Source of the DNA: a virus
Lineage: Duplodnaviria > Heunggongvirae > Uroviricota > Caudoviricetes
Reading direction: 5' to 3' (one strand)
Virus record (IMG/VR): IMGVR_UViG_2585427747_000002
Location: 1-33,552 of that record
Length of the DNA stretch: 33,552 nucleotides
Every line of letters begins with the position of its first letter. Within the stretch, counting starts at the first letter, position 1. Below are positions 17,370 through 30,046 of the stretch, in pieces. A program made the position numbers and the translations under genes. Below the pieces are notes generated by a model, which saw only the letters and a program-made list of their open reading frames with translations, had not been told where the DNA came from and searched no databases.

Positions 17370-18059
17370 TTAATCCAGTTTTGCAATACTTTGCTGTGAA
17401 AATGTGGTCTTTTGTTTTGAACGTGTTTTCGTTAAAAGCAATAAAGCTTGGCTATCAAGCTGTAGAAAAATGTGCTTCATTGCAACCCAGCGTTCAGTAA
17501 ATGTCTCAGACCAGTTTTTTGATGTCACTCCCACCAGTAATGCCAGCTTCTGGTATTCATAGGTCTTACGCCCTGCCAGCTCGTTCTTCACATCCTGTGC
17601 CGCCAGCCAGATCAACTTCTTTAAGCGCTCCAGTGTCTTACTGGCAATTTTTCTTGTACCTAACAGCGCCTTAAACTCGCTCCATGCCCACTGCGTTATG
17701 GCAACCTGATGCTCCCAGCGAATATTTTCACTGTAACTCCACAGCAACCACGCTTTCTGATGTTCATCGAGAGACAAAATCGCACGCCGCCACGAAGAGG
17801 TTGAAAACTCGACCGAACTGACCAGGGCGACAGATGAACCTTTTGCGTACGACTGTTTAACGGAAATCGGCGGATTATCCAGCGTAATCATCTTGCCAGT
17901 TACCACATCCAGAATGCGCGGCTTCTTTCGTTTGTAAGTAGCAGTATCAAATTGTGCATGCTCCAGCCAGGCTTCAAGCTGGCCTTTCGTTGCTCCGCTC
18001 AAATCAGCGGTAGCCACAATGAGTTGCTCGCGGACATACTGTAAATATTGGGTATTCAT
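17370..18059 (-). CDS. Putative late-gene antiterminator in the Q position (229 aa, cysteine-free, not Q-lambda type)
   Basis: Position: immediately after ylcG and before the pR'/tR'-like region and lysis genes. No Cys residues, so no lambda-Q-type zinc ribbon. Assignment is positional only. Confidence 0.5.
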   Translation of the reverse strand: MNTQYLQYVREQLIVATADLSGATKGQLEAWLEHAQFDTATYKRKKPRILDVVTGKMITLDNPPISVKQSYAKGSSVALVSSVEFSTSSWRRAILSLDEHQKAWLLWSYSENIRWEHQVAITQWAWSEFKALLGTRKIASKTLERLKKLIWLAAQDVKNELAGRKTYEYQKLALLVGVTSKNWSETFTERWVAMKHIFLQLDSQALLLLTKTRSKQKTTFSQQSIAKLD

Positions 18060-19612: not shown

Positions 19613-19651
19613 AATTATGACAAGTTGATTATGGAAAATCAAAGCTTGTCA

Positions 19652-20669: not shown

Positions 20670-21037
20670 AATATCACTCTCAAACAAAGTCCATTTATCA
20701 TAGAATAAAAGCCCTCTAAGAGCTTTGATTTGTATCTATGCTAATTCCCGTCAATTTGTTCTTCATTTTACCTCCAGCTGTTGTGCTGCTGCAGTGGCAT
20801 TCAATAGTTTTCCTTCTAAGCATCCTACAAAATCGGTGACGAGTCATGACCAGTTCACGTAGTGCAATGAAATTACTGCAATCTATTATGACGCAAATGC
20901 GTCAATACTCGAATCAACTGATCATCCTGCCACGACTGAAATCTCAAATAGGCCGTTTCTCAAGTAAGAGATTTTGAATGCATTATTGGCTACTGAAAAA
21001 AAACCAGCGCCAACTGGGTTCATATGAAATTTTTTTG

Positions 21038-21532
21038 TCATTTCCAATTGCAAGACTGTGAAATTTTTTCCACAACCTTATCAATCTCAGACAAGTCAAA
21101 CTCAACTACTTGCATAGTTGATCCATAAGGTTCAAACCCAAAAATAGCTTTTTTATGCTTAGCCAAGGTCTTTATAAATTGTATTGGTTGTGGAGCAAAT
21201 GCAGAATCACCGCCTTCCCCACCTCCCCAAACACTCTTGACCGGCTTTCCGCCATCTAACCGCACTGTAATTCTTGGGTTGTCCGAACCCATATAATCAT
21301 TGAATGATAAATAGGCATCTGTTTTGTTATCACTACAACGCAACACCAGTGAAGTTGCACGATCAGTACCTGCTTTGTTATATGAATCTGGTGATAAATT
21401 AAGAGCCACAAAGTCAGTCTGGTCAGTCATTTTATTCATCTCAGACTTTGTTATCCACGGCCCTAACTTCTCTACACCAGCATTTGCTGTAAACGAGGCA
21501 CTTATGACAAAGGCTAAAATAAATTTTCTCAT
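21038..21532 (-). CDS. Hypothetical secreted protein (164 aa) with Sec-type signal peptide, AT-rich cargo
   Basis: N-terminus MRKFILAFVISASFTANA|GVEK (signal-peptide-like, no lipobox Cys); AAGGAG SD 8 nt upstream; no family recognised. Confidence 0.6.
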   Translation of the reverse strand: MRKFILAFVISASFTANAGVEKLGPWITKSEMNKMTDQTDFVALNLSPDSYNKAGTDRATSLVLRCSDNKTDAYLSFNDYMGSDNPRITVRLDGGKPVKSVWGGGEGGDSAFAPQPIQFIKTLAKHKKAIFGFEPYGSTMQVVEFDLSEIDKVVEKISQSCNWK

Positions 21533-22550: not shown

Positions 22551-23476
22551 AGCTCCACCCCGTAAATCCAGTCAGTGTTCGTCAGGTCGAATTTTGGTTT
22601 GCCGGCTGTCACGCCAGCCTGTTGCTTGTTACGGTTGATTTCGAGTTGGGTCCACTTGTCGCGGAGTTTGGCCGGACTTAGCACGTTACCGGACCAGAAG
22701 TTGTCCTGGCATGCCCAGCGGAACAGCACGCACATGTCGCGGTGGTTACGTCCGTCACGTTCACGCATCAGGCGGATATCGTTAGCCCACCCTGCAAAAT
22801 TCGGTTTTCTGGCTGATGGCGCGATGGTCTTCACCATGTCAAACATCCACTCTGCGGCGGTCAGGTCTTCTGCTGTCCCCCACTTGCTGCCGCTCTGAAT
22901 TGCAGCATCTGGTTTCACCACAGGAAGATCGTTTTCTGGTTGGTCAGAGGATTCGCCAGAATTCTCGGACGAAAAAGGTTTTATATTGTCTTTTGTTAGT
23001 TTGTCTTTTGTGTTTACCTGATTCGGGTAAACGCCTTTACCTGATTTGGGTAAACTTTTCTTACCTGATTCAGGTAAATTTACCTCTTTCAGGTAAACTT
23101 TATTTTTCTTACCTGATTCGGGTAATGTTGACCATTCACTGACCACATTATTAATACCGATATTCCGCCCGCTCTGAATCAAAATCCCACGCTTTACCAG
23201 AACACTTTTTGCAGCAGAACACTTGTGCGGCAATATCCCGGTCAATTCGGACAGTTGCTCGTTGCTCACCCAATCCAGTTTTTTATTAAAACCATATGTT
23301 TTGCGCATGACAGCCAGGAAGACCAGAAGCTGGTGCTGTGTTAATCCGGCCAGCATCACAGCTTCCAGCAACTCATTTGCAATGCGCGTATAACCATCAT
23401 CGAGATCTGCCACGCGCCGCTCCTTTTGTGCCTCATCCGGCACTGGAAAATTGAATATCTCAGCAGTGTTTGCCAT
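22547..23476 (-). CDS. O: Replication initiator O (origin-binding); N-terminal domain lambda O-like, remainder divergent
   Basis: Start MANTAEIFNFPVPDEAQKERRVADLDDGYTRIANELLEA preceded by GGAAGG SD (track ORF has a 30-codon upstream extension); contains ori iterons; 3' end overlaps P start. Confidence 0.85.
   Translation of the reverse strand: MANTAEIFNFPVPDEAQKERRVADLDDGYTRIANELLEAVMLAGLTQHQLLVFLAVMRKTYGFNKKLDWVSNEQLSELTGILPHKCSAAKSVLVKRGILIQSGRNIGINNVVSEWSTLPESGKKNKVYLKEVNLPESGKKSLPKSGKGVYPNQVNTKDKLTKDNIKPFSSENSGESSDQPENDLPVVKPDAAIQSGSKWGTAEDLTAAEWMFDMVKTIAPSARKPNFAGWANDIRLMRERDGRNHRDMCVLFRWACQDNFWSGNVLSPAKLRDKWTQLEINRNKQQAGVTAGKPKFDLTNTDWIYGVEL
22981..23126. repeat. ori: Replication origin inside O: five ~19-bp iterons (TTACCTGATTCGGGTAAAC-like, each an imperfect palindrome) at 23014-23126 plus AT-rich tract 22981-23013
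   Basis: Iterons read at 23014-23032, 23037-23055, 23061-23079, 23080-23098, 23109-23126; AT-rich stretch follows in the direction of O transcription, as in ori-lambda. Confidence 0.85.
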
Positions 23477-23562
23477 AATTCCTTCCGCAATGAGTGCGTT
23501 ACGATTTGCACCTGAAAGTCGGTTCTGTTCCAGCAGACCGGCTTTCGCCATTTCTGAACCTG

Positions 23563-24102
23563 TCATATCGCCCCCAGCATGGTAGTAACCATCGCCATCA
23601 ATGGACCAGCCAGATCTGGGTCCACACGAAACATCGACACAATACCTTCACTAATTTCCTTCAGTTTCTGGTGGCGTGGTGCGTTGAGAATGACAGCCTG
23701 TTTTGCCTCACTGAGTTCCTTTTCCATTTCAGCCAACCTAGCCATGAAGCTATCCTGCTCAACCAGGTAACCGCGATATTCCAGCGGTAGTACCGCCAGG
23801 ATTGCCGGGGTCAGTTCACGCACGTTATTTCGGTATTTTTCAGAATCGAATTTGTTATCGAGGAAGCGGAACAGCTTCTGGCGTGCACGGCTGACATCAT
23901 CAGGGAAATCGATGGTGCCGCCGCCCTGCTCCCGATACTCATTCACAATGAGTGTGGCAACGACATCCTGATTATCTTCAGCCGACCAGGCGCGGACGGC
24001 ATCACGGATTTTTTCGTGGCCTGGCACCTGTTTTGTTTGAGAACGATTTATCACCGCAGTCGGGCTAAATCCGCTAGTCTGTTGGTATGTAAGTGGTTGC
24101 AT
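23563..24102 (-). CDS. cII-position regulatory protein (179 aa; much longer than lambda CII, possibly CP76/YdaT-like)
   Basis: Lies between cro and O; AAGGAG SD 7 nt upstream; lambda CII is 97 aa, so this is a different protein family in the same position. Family name is a guess. Confidence 0.5.
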   Translation of the reverse strand: MQPLTYQQTSGFSPTAVINRSQTKQVPGHEKIRDAVRAWSAEDNQDVVATLIVNEYREQGGGTIDFPDDVSRARQKLFRFLDNKFDSEKYRNNVRELTPAILAVLPLEYRGYLVEQDSFMARLAEMEKELSEAKQAVILNAPRHQKLKEISEGIVSMFRVDPDLAGPLMAMVTTMLGAI

Positions 24103-24146
24103 AATTGACTCCTTTAGTTTGAATTGACTGTTAAGTTGATTGCTTA

Positions 24147-24159
24147 TTGTTAAAGAGCG
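24147..24159 (-). promoter_or_regulatory. boxA-like element CGCTCTTTAACAA (nutR-like position downstream of cro)
   Basis: Minus-strand sequence matches the boxA consensus (CGCTCTTTAACAA, rrn-type); 13 nt after the cro stop. No convincing boxB hairpin found next to it. Confidence 0.4.
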
Positions 24160-24171
24160 TGAAATGGAAAT

Positions 24172-24402
24172 TTAAGCTGCGTTCTTTTCGGTGTGTGGAA
24201 ACAACTTCGGAAGATCCGGGCGAATCTGGTGTGCCTTCACTACTCCACCAGTAGCCGTAACAATGCTGCCGACATGTTCAGGGGATACCTTTGCTTTGTT
24301 GTGAAGCCACTTATAGACGGCCTGCTGTGAAACTTCGCAAGCAGCGCCCAGTTTCTTTTGTGAACCAACGATATTGATCGCTGTTTTAATAGCTGGGTTC
24401 AT
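24172..24402 (-). CDS. cro: Cro-like repressor (HTH)
   Basis: 76 aa, MNPAIKTAINIVGSQKKLGAACEVSQQAVYKWLHNKAKVSPEHV...; GGAGG SD; divergent from cI across an operator region. Confidence 0.85.
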   Translation of the reverse strand: MNPAIKTAINIVGSQKKLGAACEVSQQAVYKWLHNKAKVSPEHVGSIVTATGGVVKAHQIRPDLPKLFPHTEKNAA

Positions 24403-24506
24403 AACAACCTCCGTGGTTAATTTGAATCAAGATTAAAACTATGGTTGTTTTTAGTCAACAACCATTTTCGTTTGATGGAATAAAACCTTGGTTGTACATT
24501 TGAACT
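24403..24506. promoter_or_regulatory. Immunity control region: OR operators with divergent pR (toward cro) and pRM-like promoter (toward cI)
   Basis: Minus strand TTGACT-17 nt-TAATCT upstream of cro; plus strand TTGATG-17-TACATT ending 7 nt before the cI ATG (leaderless-type); palindrome ATGGTTGTT-N7-AACAACCAT overlaps the pR -35. Confidence 0.7.
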
Positions 24507-25196
24507 ATGAAAACAACACTCTCAGAAAGACTTAAAGAAGCCAGATTAGCGCGAGGCCTTACACAAAAGGCGCTTGGGGATTTGGTCGGGGTTAGCCAAG
24601 CTGCTATTCAGAAAATCGAAACAGGGAAAGCTAATCAAACAACTAAAATCGTGGAGATCGCGAACGCTTTGGGTGTGCGCGCAGAATGGTTATCTTCTGG
24701 CGTTGGAAATATGTCAGACAGTACAGTGCAACCAATACAACCAACTGTCAGCCATTCCAAATACTTTAAGATTGACGTTCTTGATATAGAAGTGAGTGCC
24801 GGGCCGGGTGTCATCAACCGTGAGTTTGTAGAAGTTCTACGTTCGGTTGAGTATTCGTTTGACGATGCTCGTCACATGTTCGATGGCAGGAAGGCGGAAA
24901 ATATCCGCATCATTAACGTACGCGGTGACAGCATGTCAGGAACGATTGAACCTGGTGATCTGCTGTTCGTTGATATCACGGTTAAATCTTTCGACGGTGA
25001 TGGTATCTATGCGTTTCTGTACGACGACACAGCCCATGTAAAGCGCCTGCAAATGATGAAGGATAAGCTGCTGGTTATCTCTGATAACAAGAGCTACTCA
25101 CCGTGGGACCCGATCGAGAAAGACGAGATGAACCGGGTGTTCATCTTCGGTAAGGTTATTGGGAGCATGCCCCAGACGTACAGGAAACATGGATAA
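24507..25196 (+). CDS. cI: CI repressor (N-terminal HTH, C-terminal LexA/S24-type autocleavage domain)
   Basis: 229 aa, MKTTLSERLKEARLARGLTQKALGDLVGVSQAAIQKIETGK... and C-terminal ...NVRGDSMSGTIEPGDLLFVD...AHVKRLQ... (Ser/Lys dyad context); not lambda immunity specificity. Confidence 0.9.
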   Translation: MKTTLSERLKEARLARGLTQKALGDLVGVSQAAIQKIETGKANQTTKIVEIANALGVRAEWLSSGVGNMSDSTVQPIQPTVSHSKYFKIDVLDIEVSAGPGVINREFVEVLRSVEYSFDDARHMFDGRKAENIRIINVRGDSMSGTIEPGDLLFVDITVKSFDGDGIYAFLYDDTAHVKRLQMMKDKLLVISDNKSYSPWDPIEKDEMNRVFIFGKVIGSMPQTYRKHG

Positions 25197-25262
25197 TCAG
25201 TACTGTGCTGATGAGTCGTTTAGGGGATAGTAAATTTAATTAGAATTAGACGAGAGCGATTT

Positions 25263-26126
25263 ATGGATTGTGACGCTTTACAGGATATAAAAATCTCTCT
25301 TAGGTATGACGGAAAAGATGCTTTAAATCATGAAATAGATTTGAACTGCCTAGGAGAATCCCTAAAGGGTTTTTCTAAAGTTCTCTCAACAGCAGCTTCT
25401 TTCTCTGTTACACAAAAATATAGTAAATACATTAATTATCAGGAAGTTAAGGTTTACGCACGCGAAGCAAAAGCTAACTGCTTTACTCTTGAAGCAGTTC
25501 TTAACTTCGCCACTCAGAACCAGTTGTTCTCGGGGATCGCCGCAACTATACTTGGCGCAATACTACAATATATTTTTGCGAGAAATTCTAACAAGAAAGA
25601 TGAAATGAAAGCTTTGCAGCAGTCACTTGAAAAGGCCATAGAGGCACTAGGAAACAAGGATGCTGGAACCATTGATAAGTTGATCTCTTTGATTGACCGA
25701 ATGGCTGTAGAGCTTCGCCCCTCTGTAAGGCAGGCAGTATCACCTATTGGTAATACTTGCGATCAGATAAGTGTTGCAACAAATGTTGACGGCTGCCTTC
25801 TAAAAGTTAACGAGAGAGATAAAGCTGAAATTGATAGGCTTGATGATGATGAAGTTCTCGGTCTTCGTGAGTATCGTGCTTTTCTTACAGAATTTGATGC
25901 ACAAAATATGACAGCTAAAATAATTTTAGATGGTGATGACTCAAAAAAGAGAATCACTGCTGAAATTAGCGATCCAGCTGCAGGAAAGAAGAATAACCCG
26001 TATATTAGAGCTCTTAGTGCATATATATCAACCAAAGGTGATCCATCTGCAGTATTCACTATAACCGCAAAGGCTACTGTTAAAAAAGGCCAGATAAACA
26101 GGTTATTTATTGTAGATGCGAAATGA
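25263..26126 (+). CDS. Hypothetical protein (287 aa), AT-rich, in the rexAB position downstream of cI
   Basis: [31 protein letters not shown]... with one central hydrophobic segment ([19 protein letters not shown]); gagag SD; followed by an intrinsic terminator; no family recognised. Confidence 0.7.
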
Positions 26127-26129
26127 TTT

Positions 26130-26157
26130 CCCCGGCCGTCGTGCCGGGTTTTCTTTT
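26130..26157 (+). terminator. Intrinsic terminator after the cI-operon cargo gene
   Basis: CCCGGC-cgtcgt-GCCGGG followed by TTTTCTTTT, 4 nt after the stop codon. Confidence 0.8.
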
Positions 26158-26284
26158 GCCTCCCCTCATCACACAAACCGTTCAAAAAACCACCACGACC
26201 TCGCTTCAGTTATCGCTGTGCGATGCAAGTCACAAAATAAATCCATCCTAAATACAACCATTTACATCTAAAAAAACCAATAAA

Positions 26285-26326
26285 ACAACTTTTGTTGTTG
26301 ACGACAAAACAACTATAGTTTTAAAT
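26285..26326 (+). promoter_or_regulatory. pL-like promoter with OL operators
   Basis: TTGACG (26298-26303)-17 nt-TTAAAT, or alternatively TTGTTG-16-TATAGT; palindromes CAACTTTTGTTG (26285-26296) and GTTGTT-N8-AACAAC (26294-26313) share half-sites with OR. Confidence 0.6.
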
Positions 26327-26519
26327 AAATTCATCGCAACAACACAACGATACGGCAACCACCTGATTCACCGTTGCGATGACCGCTTAGATCCGCAGCT
26401 TGAATTTCAGCAGGCTCCGGGAAGTGCGAGGGGTGAAGCGGACGCGTGAACGTCGGTGTGACCAGCTGAAATCAACACAACACTTTATACCTCAGTCGCT
26501 TCAACGAGGCGGCTTAGTT

Positions 26520-26810
26520 ATGACAACCGGCGGCCATCCACCGCCTGAATACGCGCAGAAGTCTCTATATGTTCAGCAGCCCAGCTTACGGGCAGGAGTT
26601 TTTATGGTTCATCAACATTACGGAACGCAGACCGTTAATCGCGGTGCGGTCATGCCAGGAATGCTGGTCAAACACAAAGATGGTACCTGGACTGCATCAG
26701 CTAATTTACGCGGACGGCTTTATCTGCATCGCGGCATCGAGCGCACTTATACCCGTGACTTGCTCGTGGAAGTTTTTCTCGACGGGCGCGGCAACGGTCT
26801 GAATCACTAA
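26520..26810 (+). CDS. Hypothetical protein (96 aa) between pL and gam; start uncertain (alternative TTG at 26400 gives 136 aa with an Arg-rich N-terminus)
   Basis: ATG at 26520 with GAGG 11 nt upstream; the track ORF starts at a TTG at 26400 and would add RLREVRGVKRTRERR. No family recognised. Confidence 0.45.
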   Translation: MTTGGHPPPEYAQKSLYVQQPSLRAGVFMVHQHYGTQTVNRGAVMPGMLVKHKDGTWTASANLRGRLYLHRGIERTYTRDLLVEVFLDGRGNGLNH

Positions 26811-26885
26811 TCCCCTTTCCTGTTTACCTAATCAGCCTGGCATTTCGCGGGCGATATTTTCACAGCCATTTTCAGGAGTTCAGCC

Positions 26886-27182
26886 ATGAACGCTTATTAC
26901 ATTCAGGATCGTCTTGAGGCTCAGAGCTGGGCGCGTCACTACCAGCAGATCGCCCATGAAGAGAAAGAGGCAGAACTGGCAGACGACATGGAAAAAGGCC
27001 TGCCCCAGCACCTGTTTGAATCGCTATGCATCGATCATTTGCAACGCCACGGGGCCAGCAAAAAAGCCATTACCCGTGCATTTGATGACGATGTTGAGTT
27101 TCAGGAGCGCATGGCGGAACACATCCGGTACATGGTTGAAACCATTGCTCACCATCAGGTTGATATTGATTCAGAGGTATAA
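26886..27182 (+). CDS. gam: Gam, RecBCD inhibitor (short GamS-type form)
   Basis: 98 aa, [60 protein letters not shown]..., matches the C-terminal 98 residues of recalled lambda Gam. Confidence 0.93.
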
Positions 27183-27187
27183 AACGA

Positions 27188-27973
27188 ATGAGTACTGCAC
27201 TCGCAACGCTGGCTGGGAAGCTGGCTGAACGTGTCGGCATGGATTCTGTCGACCCACAAGAACTGATCACCACTCTTCGTCAGACGGCATTTAAAGGTGA
27301 TGCCAGCGATGCGCAGTTCATCGCATTGTTGATCGTCGCCAACCAGTACGGCCTTAATCCGTGGACGAAAGAAATTTACGCCTTCCCTGATAAGCAGAAC
27401 GGCATCGTTCCGGTGGTGGGCGTTGATGGCTGGTCCCGCATCATCAATGAAAACCAGCAGTTTGATGGCATGGACTTTGAGCAGGACAATGAATCATGTA
27501 CATGCCGGATTTACCGCAAGGACCGTAATCATCCGATCTGCGTTACCGAATGGATGGATGAATGCCGCCGCGAACCATTCAAAACCCGCGAAGGCAGAGA
27601 AATCACCGGACCGTGGCAGTCGCATCCCAAACGAATGTTACGGCATAAAGCCATGATTCAGTGTGCCCGTCTGGCCTTCGGATTTGCTGGTATCTATGAC
27701 AAGGATGAAGCTGAGCGCATTGTCGAAAATACTGCATACACTGCGGAACGTCAGCCGGAACGCGACATCACTCCGGTTAACGATGAAACCATGCAGGAGA
27801 TTAACACTCTGCTGATCGCCCTGGATAAAACATGGGATGACGACTTATTGCCGCTCTGTTCCCAGATATTTCGCCGCGACATTCGCGCATCGTCAGAACT
27901 GACACAGGCCGAAGCAGTGAAAGCTCTTGGATTCCTGAAACAGAAAGCCACTGAGCAGAAGGTGGCAGCATGA
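27188..27973 (+). CDS. bet: Bet (Red-beta) single-strand annealing protein
   Basis: 261 aa, [66 protein letters not shown]..., matches lambda Bet. Confidence 0.96.
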
Positions 27974-28650: not shown

Positions 28651-28805
28651 CGCATCCTCACGATAATATCCGGGTAGGCGCGATCACTTTCGTCTACTCC
28701 GTTACAAAGCGAGGCTGGGTATTTCCCGGGCTTTCTGTTATCCGAAATCCGCTGAAAGCCCAGCGGCTGGCTGAGGAGATAAATAATAAACGGGAGGCGG
28801 TATGA
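28647..28805 (+). CDS. Small hypothetical protein (52 aa), translationally coupled between exo and the PAPS-reductase gene
   Basis: Sub-60-aa ORF missing from the track: [52 protein letters not shown]; ATGA overlaps at both ends. Confidence 0.45.
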
Positions 28806-30046
28806 ACGAGGCAGCAATAATTATTGTCCCAACAGACATCAGCAAGAAAATTCGCGAAATAGAAGAGTCCTACAACAGATATATAAATGAATTTCGCATC
28901 CCTAATGATCATAAGATAATCGTGAATTATTCAGCAGGAAAAGACAGCACTGCCACACTCGCAGTGGCGCACACATTATTCGGCAAACAGGTACATGCTG
29001 TTATGGCAGACACGGATAATGAGCATAATCTAACTGTCGAATTCGCCAGGAGCATTCATGAGCAGATCGGTTGTAGCCCTGTGCAGGTTGTGAAGCGGAT
29101 TTACACTGAAGAAGATTTTACCAAACGACGAATTTATCTGCAAAAAAACTGGTCTAAACGACAGATGATCCGCATGGGAGCATACCGTGGCATAGTCATG
29201 CCTTCCCTCGCACGTTCTGACACCAAATTCGGGCAAGCCTGGAAGCGCACAGCAGAACGCTGGGGAATTGAGTTCGAAACTGCTCTTGATGCTGCGCTTT
29301 CCGTTATGCACCCATCCGGTAATAGCTTTTTGGATTGCTCCCTTCTGCATGGCAAGTTCCCTATGCTGCGCGACCGATTCTGTACAGACGAACTGAAAAT
29401 TCAGATAGCTTTCGACGCAGCCATAAAGCCGCTCCTTGATGCTGGCGATGTTATCGTACAATGGTCTGGTGTTCGCGCGGATGAGTCCTCTAAGCGCGCT
29501 GGATATGAGAGGTTTTCCCGCGATATGCGCGACGCCGATTTTCTCTACAACTTCCTGCCGCTCCACAAATGGACGGCTGAGGACGTATTCGCAGTTCACA
29601 AATATTTCGGAATTAAGCCAAATCCACTTTATATGCAAGGTGCGTCTCGTGTTGGCTGCATGAATTGCGTGCTATGCAACAAAGAGGAAATTGCAGAGAC
29701 GGCTGCGCGCTGGCCAGAGCACATCAAAAAGCACAAACAATGGGAGTTGAAGGTACGCCTTGCTAGTAGATGGGTACACTGGATGAGCGTAGGAGAGATA
29801 AGCCAACGCTGGATGAAACAGTTCAATCTGCCACTTGGTCGAAATATTCAACTTTTTGGGCTAAAACCTGATGTGCAACACATCGACTGGTCAGGATTTT
29901 ATGGTCCTCGTGGAGATCTTAATTCTCCGGGTGTTTATGAAGTCGTAGAGTGGGCAAAAACAGGGCGCGGTGGCAAGGTCTACGATCTTGTAAAAGCAAG
30001 TCTCGATATAGAGGTTTGCTCTTCACGCTACGGTCTGTGCGAATAA
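28802..30046 (+). CDS. PAPS-reductase-family protein (PP-loop ATP pyrophosphatase fold; IbrA/DndC-like)
   Basis: 414 aa with PP-loop motif (…NYSAGKDSTATL… near residue 43); length and architecture resemble prophage IbrA as recalled. No ParB-like partner gene follows. Confidence 0.7.
   Translation: MNEAAIIIVPTDISKKIREIEESYNRYINEFRIPNDHKIIVNYSAGKDSTATLAVAHTLFGKQVHAVMADTDNEHNLTVEFARSIHEQIGCSPVQVVKRIYTEEDFTKRRIYLQKNWSKRQMIRMGAYRGIVMPSLARSDTKFGQAWKRTAERWGIEFETALDAALSVMHPSGNSFLDCSLLHGKFPMLRDRFCTDELKIQIAFDAAIKPLLDAGDVIVQWSGVRADESSKRAGYERFSRDMRDADFLYNFLPLHKWTAEDVFAVHKYFGIKPNPLYMQGASRVGCMNCVLCNKEEIAETAARWPEHIKKHKQWELKVRLASRWVHWMSVGEISQRWMKQFNLPLGRNIQLFGLKPDVQHIDWSGFYGPRGDLNSPGVYEVVEWAKTGRGGKVYDLVKASLDIEVCSSRYGLCE

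Follow-up and report, generated by a model that had tools for sequence, protein, structure and literature searches.

The region around positions 24,103 to 24,506 of the virus record IMGVR_UViG_2585427747_000002 (IMG/VR), the 33,552 nucleotides of which are called here the window, is the cI/cro switch of a DLP12-like lambdoid prophage. The account proposed for this region, to which a probability of about 0.72 is assigned as a whole, is that of a bistable immunity switch in a prophage of this type devoid of N, with operators laid out as in phage 434 and with a boxA, located just after cro, that is the remnant of a nutR site. The lambdoid nature of the switch appears from the divergent cI/cro pair, the repressor of which carries a self-cleaving S24 domain, and from a second set of operators (OL) over the promoter pL beyond cI, the third OL site being represented by a half-site only. 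The plus strand of the window corresponds to the leftward direction of lambda and carries, in this order, cI (24507-25196), a cargo gene with a terminator, OL/pL, kil, gam, bet, exo and int. Starting from the switch, the minus strand carries cro, a CII analogue of the ydaT family, O, P, the genes of the nin region and Q (17370-18059). The features of the region are listed in Table 1.

The operators of the window were compared with those of Klebsiella phage ST101-KPC2phi6.1 and Providencia phage PSTCR7lys, the OL of which matched the window in a distant search. Eleven genomic loci, retrieved by searching with the aligned Cro sequences of these three, were subsequently added. The resulting alignments comprise 13 loci from about 11 genera for the whole cI-cro intergenic region, which contains OR, and 11 loci for OL. 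An earlier note on this DNA had proposed AACAAC/GTTGTT as the recognition motif of a repressor with a specificity other than that of lambda. The motif stands, with ACAAC/GTTKT half-sites essentially invariant in the 13-locus alignment of OR, and the distinct specificity is supported as well. The palindromes described at that time are all present, namely ATGGTTGTT-N7-AACAACCAT at 24441-24465, with its core GTTGTT-N7-AACAAC at 24444-24462, and, at OL, GTTGTT-N8-AACAAC at 26294-26313 and AACAAC-N4-GTTGTT at 26284-26299, the last one being unique in the window for an expectation of 0.04.

What did not survive the comparison is the choice of the long convergent palindromes as the binding unit. It is very unlikely that one repressor dimer recognises GTTGTT-N7/8-AACAAC as such, even though these palindromes are real and improbable by chance (two in the window versus 0.01 expected) and, both here and in the Providencia phage, have arms extending to 8-9 bp. 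Their spacing is N7 at OR but N8 at OL in all three phages, the gap between GTTGT and ACAAC measuring 9 bp and 10 bp, respectively, whereas the 4-bp centre of ACAAC-N4-GTTKT is constant in 12/12 sites of the three phages and in all 13 loci. In addition, OR3 and the other half of OL2 are devoid of any partner for a long palindrome, and a 434-like domain binds 14-bp sites (PMC1636474). A convergent palindrome arises automatically from two adjacent palindromic operators, and the 25-bp palindrome of the earlier note is composed of two half-sites that face each other, the right one of OR2 and the left one of OR1.

The comparison points instead to a binding unit of 14 bp of the phage 434 type, ACAAC-N4-GTTKT, with ACAA...TTGT as outer bases. 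The operators of 434 are 14 bp long and follow the pattern ACAAT-N4-ATTGT, in which the outer 5+5 bases are contacted and the outer ACAA/TTGT are conserved (PMC1636474). The best PDB match of the cI N-terminal domain is the repressor domain of 434 (1per_L, E 4.9e-10, residues 5-68 of 78), followed by 434 Cro at 3.5e-8. The constant 4-bp centre, the conserved halves, the 434-like domain of cI and the 5+4+5 layout known from 434 together lead to the reading of the operators as 434-type 14-mers. Exact matches to ACAAC-N4-GTTKT occur four times in the 33.5-kb window, all of them in OR or OL. Except for the decayed locus L099, both the half-sites and the promoter hexamers are essentially invariant in the 13-locus alignment of OR, and the 4-bp centres and the spacers vary; TTGA of the pR -35 and TA..TT of the pRM -10 are invariant. 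The 11-locus alignment of OL displays the same pattern of invariant halves and variable centres.

The centres of OR1, OR2 and OR3 are located at 24441.5, 24464.5 and 24488.5, so that the sites are spaced OR3-24 bp-OR2-23 bp-OR1, i.e., by about two helical turns. The sequence CAAACGAA..GTTGTTGA of OR2 is conserved in the 13 loci. At OL, the candidate OL3 (AAACAACCAAAT) is kept in most of the 11 loci, at a distance of 31 bp, or 31 plus about 10-11 bp, from OL2. A candidate fourth operator of OR, ORx, has a perfect counterpart (ACAACGGAGGTTTT) in the Providencia phage (L089) and in the Morganella and Arsenophonus relatives, and a counterpart with one change in the variable centre (ACAACCGAGGTTTT) in L096; its conservation is inseparable from that of the cro ribosome site.

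With respect to phage 434 itself, the window shares a homologous cI DNA-binding domain, the 5+4+5 operator layout with the same outer ACAA/TTGT, three OR sites similarly placed on pR/pRM and the repetition of the sites at OL. In contrast, the fifth base pair is C:G in place of the T:A of 434, and several residues of the recognition helix differ (SQAAIQK vs TQQSIEQ); hetero-immunity with 434 is expected from these two differences, and the immunity specificity is thus probably not that of 434. Other differences consist of a Cro of the YdaS / P22-Cro type, which is not a paralogue of 434 Cro, and of an OL built up from two full sites and a half-site, OR having a candidate fourth site that covers the ribosome site of cro.

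Both cI and Cro would bind the 14-bp ACAAC-N4-GTTKT operators. OR1 would cover the -10 of pR, OR2 the -35 of pR and OR3 the -10 of pRM, and a repressor bound to OR2 would, by analogy with lambda, activate pRM. Similarly, OL1 and OL2, located 24 bp apart, would cover pL as the OR sites cover pR, pL being a near-duplicate of pR.

The transcript of lambda cI from pRM is leaderless, and the earlier note had suggested the same for the window from a TACATT -10 lying about 7 nt before the cI ATG. The hexamer occupies 24495-24500 and the ATG begins at 24507, with six bases in between and the A of the ATG as the seventh. A stop codon in the same frame (TGA, 24501-24503) lies 3 nt before the ATG and rules out an upstream start, and no ribosome site is read in the sequence before the ATG. 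The proposed geometry is upheld by the 13 related loci from about 11 genera, all of which display a TA..TT hexamer 6-7 nt before the cI ATG, following which a variable spacer lacks any Shine-Dalgarno. Owing to the in-frame TGA, the missing ribosome site and the constant position of the -10, it is very probable that the pRM transcript of cI is leaderless, with the A of the ATG as its first base. A leaderless repressor mRNA has also been reported for paaR2 of CP-933P (PMC8630535).

The boxA following cro, CGCTCTTTAACAA, is the sole match in the window at up to one mismatch, and 0/100 shuffles gave any. It had been described as a 13/13 match to the boxA of the rrn operons located thirteen nucleotides after cro; the boxA itself stands, with 12 nt (24160-24171) between it and the cro stop codon (24172-24174), and its 12-nt core GCTCTTTAACAA recurs unchanged in the leader of rrnB (CACTGCTCTTTAACAATTT), but the first base is C where rrn has T. 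The same C also begins the boxA of P22. The lack of a clear boxB, noticed earlier, is borne out by the RNA between cro and ydaT, a G-poor stretch of 69 nt (A27 C15 G6 U21) with a fold of -4.1 kcal/mol that does not differ from shuffles (z = -0.02). Similarly, no boxA occurs on the pL-transcribed strand after pL, even when loose patterns are used. The window thus offers a near-consensus boxA just downstream of cro, as in a nut site, and a consensus BoxA in unstructured, accessible RNA, as in a stand-alone BoxA; neither a boxB hairpin by the boxA, nor an Arg-rich N after pL, nor a nutL was found. Taking into account that the boxA is consensus, accessible and located about 33 nt before the ydaT ribosome site, its unstructured RNA likely still binds the host NusB/NusE.

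In its sequence and in its position a few nucleotides past the cro stop, this boxA resembles the nutR sites of lambda, P22 and phi21, e.g., the P22 boxA (CGCTCTTTACCAA), which begins 7 nt past the cro stop and precedes a boxB. In contrast to these phages, the window lacks the boxB hairpin, the N gene and nutL alike, and the boxA therefore cannot serve as an N-utilisation site. The BoxA sequences of the rrn leaders, of the CRISPR arrays of Salmonella and of suhB offer another comparison, since the core is identical to that of rrnB and the boxA stands alone, in unstructured RNA, close to the 5' end of a long transcription unit. In these contexts BoxA is known to operate with host factors alone (PMC7665894, PMC5725501). 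The boxA of the window differs from them by its location between two translated phage genes, and not before an untranslated RNA, and by its derivation from a decayed nut site.

This derivation is indicated by five Cro relatives sharing the operators (L089, L094, L095, L096 and L098), from a Providencia phage, Providencia alcalifaciens, Izhakiella, Erwinia tracheiphila and Arsenophonus, in which a near-consensus boxA located 6-8 nt past the cro stop is associated with a stable hairpin. A boxA-like sequence also occurs downstream of pL in 5/5 of these relatives, 55-60 nt after the start of OL1 in the four that are measurable. In Erwinia and Providencia the left and right hairpins are alike (GGGGTGATACACCCC vs GGGTGTTTCACCC; GATCTGACTAAGTGTTAGATC vs GCTCTGAATATGTGTTGGAGC), with paired changes on both sides, and such a resemblance is consistent with boxB sites for one N protein. 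Open reading frames past pL in Izhakiella, Providencia alcalifaciens and Arsenophonus exhibit the Arg-rich N-terminal stretches SKSRYKARRKAQRE, NARCRRHERRSAKR and NNAKKRRLAKQ, which we take to resemble the N motifs of phi21 and P22/lambda. On this comparative evidence, the boxA of the window is the boxA half of an ancestral nutR, apparently left as an orphan remnant. A new rrn-like invention is not supported, given the homologous boxA and boxB that follow cro in the relatives.

The limits of the exchanged modules are sharply defined. Phages of different immunity, such as 4A7 and Perceval, are homologous to the window from precisely the predicted start of pL (26333/26334) on one side and from the ydaT start codon on the other, and these two joints place the boxA in the cI-cro module. 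In 60/60 sampled IMG/VR loci with the boxA in which the sequence reaches OL, the N-less pL leader adjoins OL. The simplest reading is that an N-dependent ancestor of the immunity module recombined into an N-less backbone. Such a module exchange would have replaced the left arm with an N-less kil leader and left a right arm carrying the ydaT module and no boxB, the boxA having survived and the boxB not. A clean deletion of the boxB relative to the Providencia phage was also considered, and is not claimed, the alignment downstream of the boxA, although suggestive by eye, being not significant (173/2000 shuffles).

Besides this missing trace of a boxB deletion, several other observations weigh against the proposed account. 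No boxA follows the closer relatives of cro from Klebsiella, Kosakonia, Enterobacter and Serratia, and none is present in phage 4A7, which shares the ydaT-O-P genes and the pL leader under another immunity; the boxA is consequently dispensable for such phages. Among 181 partly redundant IMG/VR loci of low diversity, one substitution (A9 to G) is found in the 13 positions of the boxA versus three variants in the other 56 nt, so that the population data, which have little power, give no sign of a special constraint on the boxA. With regard to the operators, OR2 has a single good half-site, and both ORx and OL3 are weak calls.

The pL leader of four of the loci deserves a separate mention. In the Providencia phage (L089 3426-3600) and in the Kosakonia, Enterobacter and Serratia relatives (L090, L092, L093), the boxA of pL is followed by a conserved stretch, GTCGGAACAG...CTGTTTAGACCC...ACGCAAAAATGCG, within a long leader showing no obvious N open reading frame. 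This stretch may represent a different nutL or a leader RNA.

The absence of N was sought in several ways. No N homologue was found in the window by PHROG or tblastn searches, and no N is annotated in near-identical phages or in the RefSeq annotation. The open reading frame 26400-26810, put forward by the earlier note as a candidate antitermination factor, turned out to be made of Kil (26604-26810) preceded by an untranslated leader. The possibility that the boxA belongs to a complete nut site, served either by an N-like product of this frame, with its stretch VKRTRERR, or by the N of a co-resident prophage, is thus highly improbable. The frame is indeed open over 136 codons, with an Arg-rich N-terminal stretch, and E. 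coli O157:H7, which harbours several lambdoid prophages, carries this module. However, the family match of the frame starts at residue 60 (60-136) and concerns Kil, annotated in RefSeq as 68 amino acids with a start corresponding to 26604; phage HK225 has the same kil gene with an out-of-frame upstream mini-ORF, its upstream frame stopping before kil; and tblastn with the upstream 68 codons, including the VKRTRERR stretch, matched only the same leader. Moreover, the TTG and GTG starts of the frame lack a good ribosome site upstream, and there is neither a boxB for any N to recognise nor a second nut site.

An RNA of the HK022 put type, located in the pL leader or in the pR transcript, would make the boxA irrelevant to early antitermination. 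Put-like RNAs are commonly assumed for N-less lambdoid phages (PMC12315714), and the long pL leader extends over about 270 nt, with conservation starting exactly at +1. A covariance model built from putL and putR of HK022 recovers both of them at 95 and 86 bits, but its best match in the window scores 9.1 bits (E 0.35) and lies inside bet; an Rfam scan of 23400-27300 on both strands gave chance-level matches only; and the pL leader folds no better than shuffles (z = 0.52), the available relatives being 96-98% identical, too close for covariation. The window thus resembles HK022 as a lambdoid phage without N, and differs from it in that no put-like sequence or structure was detected. Early antitermination by a put RNA is accordingly improbable, with the restriction that the negative result applies to the HK022 sequence family and that a put of another family is not excluded.

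Two parts can be distinguished in the pL leader. The 5' half (26333-26483) begins with a 7-9-bp stem (TCGCAAC...GTTGCGA) and occurs in E. coli phages only, its conservation starting precisely at +1 and extending over at least two immunity types. It is followed upstream of kil by a 62-nt element (26484-26545; L085 2501-2562), the identity of which amounts to 95% in HK225, where an intrinsic terminator precedes it, and to about 86% in Enterobacter phages. This element contains two hairpins and a mini-ORF, MTTGGHPPP (MTIGGHPPP in HK225), with a polyproline run, and may be a leader-peptide or RNA control of kil.

Three consequences can be considered for a boxA left without N, and the one considered first, namely a relic with little or no effect, is given somewhat less than even odds. 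Next to it stands the possibility, less probable and held tentatively, that the orphan boxA is an active N-independent antiterminator protecting the pR operon from Rho. In that case NusB/NusE together with NusA, NusG and SuhB would build an rrn-type complex on RNA polymerase, and this complex would carry pR transcription past Rho-dependent stops over ydaT-O-P and the nin region to Q. The boxA core identical to that of rrnB, its location in G-poor unstructured RNA about 264 nt into a 6-kb operon, and the stability of the N-less leader with boxA in all the sampled loci and in 28% of E. coli genomes all speak for such an activity. Phages with this arrangement have no N and no put, yet form plaques, and a lone BoxA is known to protect both CRISPR arrays and rRNA from Rho (PMC7665894). 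Conversely, the boxA is missing from the close cro relatives and from 4A7, the latter having the same ydaT, O, P and pL modules, the pL operon is devoid of boxA, and no excess conservation of the boxA is detectable. In addition, terminator-like hairpins occur between P and Q (e.g., 21017..21004), which represent a poor target for rrn-type complexes, known to act poorly on intrinsic terminators. That the boxA has been retained precisely because it is functional without N, the Nus factors NusB/E, NusA and NusG with SuhB being sufficient to make pR transcription Rho-resistant, is doubtful to a slightly greater extent.

The third consequence, a control of ydaT of the suhB type, is unlikely. According to this scheme, the Nus factors, assembled some 33 nt before the ribosome site of ydaT, would repress the translation of YdaT, secondarily permit Rho termination and thereby tune the choice between lysis and lysogeny. 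Precedents exist, since the suhB BoxA represses the translation of the next gene, even at a longer distance from the ribosome site (up to 100 bp tested), and N of lambda together with the Nus factors similarly represses the translation of N at nutL (PMC5725501). In the minimum-energy fold, GCUCUUU of the boxA pairs with AAGGAGU, the ydaT Shine-Dalgarno, but this pairing is no better than in shuffles. The boxA came with the cro module and not with the ydaT module, and ydaT occurs without any boxA in 4A7 and Enterobacter. Furthermore, the boxA occupies the position of a canonical nutR, which in lambda and P22 leaves the expression of the next gene unblocked.

The YdaS-YdaT modules of Rac and CP-933P are the other systems to which the region can be compared. 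They similarly consist of a Cro of the YdaS family followed by a gene of the YdaT family, with the leaderless paaR2 mRNA in the case of CP-933P (PMC8630535). In contrast to RacR and PaaR2, the repressor of the window is a classical S24 self-cleaving cI; with respect to CP-933P, the operator consensus GTTTAGTAA differs and YdaT is only distantly related (E 0.0015 to the solved structure 8bt1). The paper on CP-933P makes no mention of nut or boxA (PMC8630535). The YdaT operator of CP-933P, TTGATT-N6-AATCAA, was considered near cro/ydaT and rejected, the only site (24413-24430) having two mismatches and the YdaT proteins being too distant for a transfer of the motif. A perfect copy of this operator, TTGATTATGGAAAATCAA, occurs at 19625-19642 in the nin region, where it overlaps promoter-like hexamers of the minus strand (TTGATT-17-CATAAT); its relevance is uncertain, the YdaT of the window being only a distant relative of the CP-933P protein.

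The site of lambda CII at pRE reads TTGC-N6-TTGC. A direct repeat, TTGACT-N6-TTGATT, is located on the plus strand at 24124-24141, between ydaT and the boxA and in the sense of cI, with a weak -10, TGAAAT (24160-24165), 18 bp later. By analogy, this repeat could be the counterpart of pRE; it is absent from the cro-ydaT junction of the 4A7 type.

Table 1. Features of the switch region and its surroundings; coordinates are those of the window.
Feature	Coordinates	Strand	Remarks
ydaT, CII analogue, first pR-operon gene past cro	23563..24102	minus	Pfam YdaT_toxin 9.5e-30; PHROG 163 CII-like activator 1.4e-67
ydaT Shine-Dalgarno AGGAG	24109..24113	minus	read from the sequence; about 33 nt downstream of boxA
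Orphan boxA, CGCTCTTTAACAA	24147..24159 (24159..24147)	minus	12 nt past the cro stop, about 264 nt past the inferred pR start
cro, 76 aa, YdaS / P22-Cro-like helix-turn-helix	24172..24402	minus	Pfam YdaS_toxin 1.7e-16, P22_Cro 4.8e-5; PDB Cro 3bd1 E 4e-4
Candidate ORx, ACCACGGAGGTTGT	24404..24417		over the cro Shine-Dalgarno; one mismatch to ACAAC-N4-GTTKT; centre 31 bp from OR1
pR	24458..24430	minus	-35 TTGACT (24458..24453), 17-bp spacer, -10 TAATCT (24435..24430); predicted start near 24423; hexamers conserved in 13 loci
OR1, ACAACCATAGTTTT	24435..24448	minus	overlaps pR spacer and -10; exact ACAAC-N4-GTTKT; halves invariant (L099 excepted), centre variable in 13 loci
OR2, ACAACCATTTTCGT	24458..24471	plus	overlaps pR -35, abuts pRM -35; one consensus half, one weak half
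pRM	24472..24500	plus	-35 TTGATG (24472-24477), 17-bp spacer, -10 TACATT (24495-24500); predicted start at A24507
OR3, ACAACCAAGGTTTT	24482..24495	minus	overlaps pRM spacer and -10; exact pattern match; conserved halves
cI repressor, 229 aa	24507..25196	plus	Pfam HTH_3 5.5e-13 and Peptidase_S24 1.2e-18 (self-cleaving C-terminal domain)
Variable cargo gene DUF7946/DUF7947, 287 aa, rexAB position	25263-26126	plus	Pfam
Intrinsic terminator after the cargo gene	26131-26148	plus	terminator scan
Candidate OL3, ACAACCATTTACAT	26254..26267		conserved ACAAC half-site only; centre 31 bp from OL2
OL2, ACAACTTTTGTTGT	26285..26298		perfect palindrome, exact on both strands; conserved in relatives
pL	26298..26326	plus	-35 TTGACG (26298-26303), 17-bp spacer, -10 TTAAAT (26321-26326); predicted start near 26333
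OL1, ACAACTATAGTTTT	26309..26322		over pL; exact match; conserved; centre 24 bp from OL2
Untranslated pL leader, about 270 nt	26333..26603	plus	no boxA, boxB, N gene, Rfam family or put; conserved across immunity types
kil, 68-aa cell-division inhibitor, first pL-operon gene	26604..26810	plus	PHROG 294 1.3e-37; RefSeq 68-aa protein

The distribution of the region is particularly wide. It was found in 1524/5426 complete E. coli genomes (28%), and a copy with 100% identity occurs in O157:H7, inside a DLP12-like prophage. The immunity region is 96-99% identical in the isolated phages PhiR47_2, PhiR34_1, PhiR5_1, PhiR26_1, IdasGreatGrand and Turner, so that plaque-forming phages, e.g., PhiR47_2 and IdasGreatGrand, carry a near-identical region; the counterpart of cro in PhiR47_2 is annotated as Cro. 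In the literature, no paper was found on this immunity group, nor on a lone boxA in an N-less lambdoid phage.

Other genes of the prophage vary or resemble cargo. The slot between cI and OL differs in otherwise near-identical phages, in which it is occupied by GevT/GevA, HipA-like or ASCH genes or is empty, and the distance from boxA to OL falls into several size classes ranging from 1.3 to 2.9 kb (60 loci); the DUF7946/DUF7947 protein found in the window gives a weak PADLOC match to PDC-S42. In the pL operon, a 414-aa protein with a PAPS-reductase domain (28802-30046) is matched by the SspD, BrxP and DndC models of PADLOC, with E down to 6e-19, and is possibly a cargo for defence or for the modification of DNA. 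In the stretch 21004-21532, located between P and the nin genes, a moron-like gene encodes a secreted VasI-like protein of 164 aa with a signal-peptide-like N-terminus; downstream of it, a terminator made of a hairpin and T8 occurs on the pR-transcribed strand (21017..21004), which pR transcripts must cross before Q.

Taken as a whole, this is a conventional lambdoid switch with operators of the 434 type, uncharacterised yet very widespread. Its single unusual feature, a modest curiosity, is the boxA of a nutR that persists although N, nutL and boxB have been lost from the phage. The operator grammar as corrected here (14-bp ACAAC-N4-GTTKT, with OR1-3 and OL1-2) defines one of the commonest immunity groups of E. 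coli prophages, present in O157:H7 and in at least eleven enterobacterial genera, and allows the prediction of hetero-immunity and of repressor targets. The comparison also illustrates that lambdoid modules swap at precise joints, the ydaT start codon and the pL +1, and that a complete N/nut system can be lost with the phage staying viable. If the boxA is inert, the region is simply a well-behaved lambdoid switch. The orphan boxA represents a natural experiment on whether, and with what effect, a lone BoxA in a translated phage operon recruits the host Nus complex. Should the boxA prove to act independently of N, it would represent a third strategy of early antitermination of the lambdoid phages, beside N/nut and put RNA, and a phage family occurring in about 28% of E. 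coli genomes would make direct use of the antitermination machinery of the ribosomal RNA operons.

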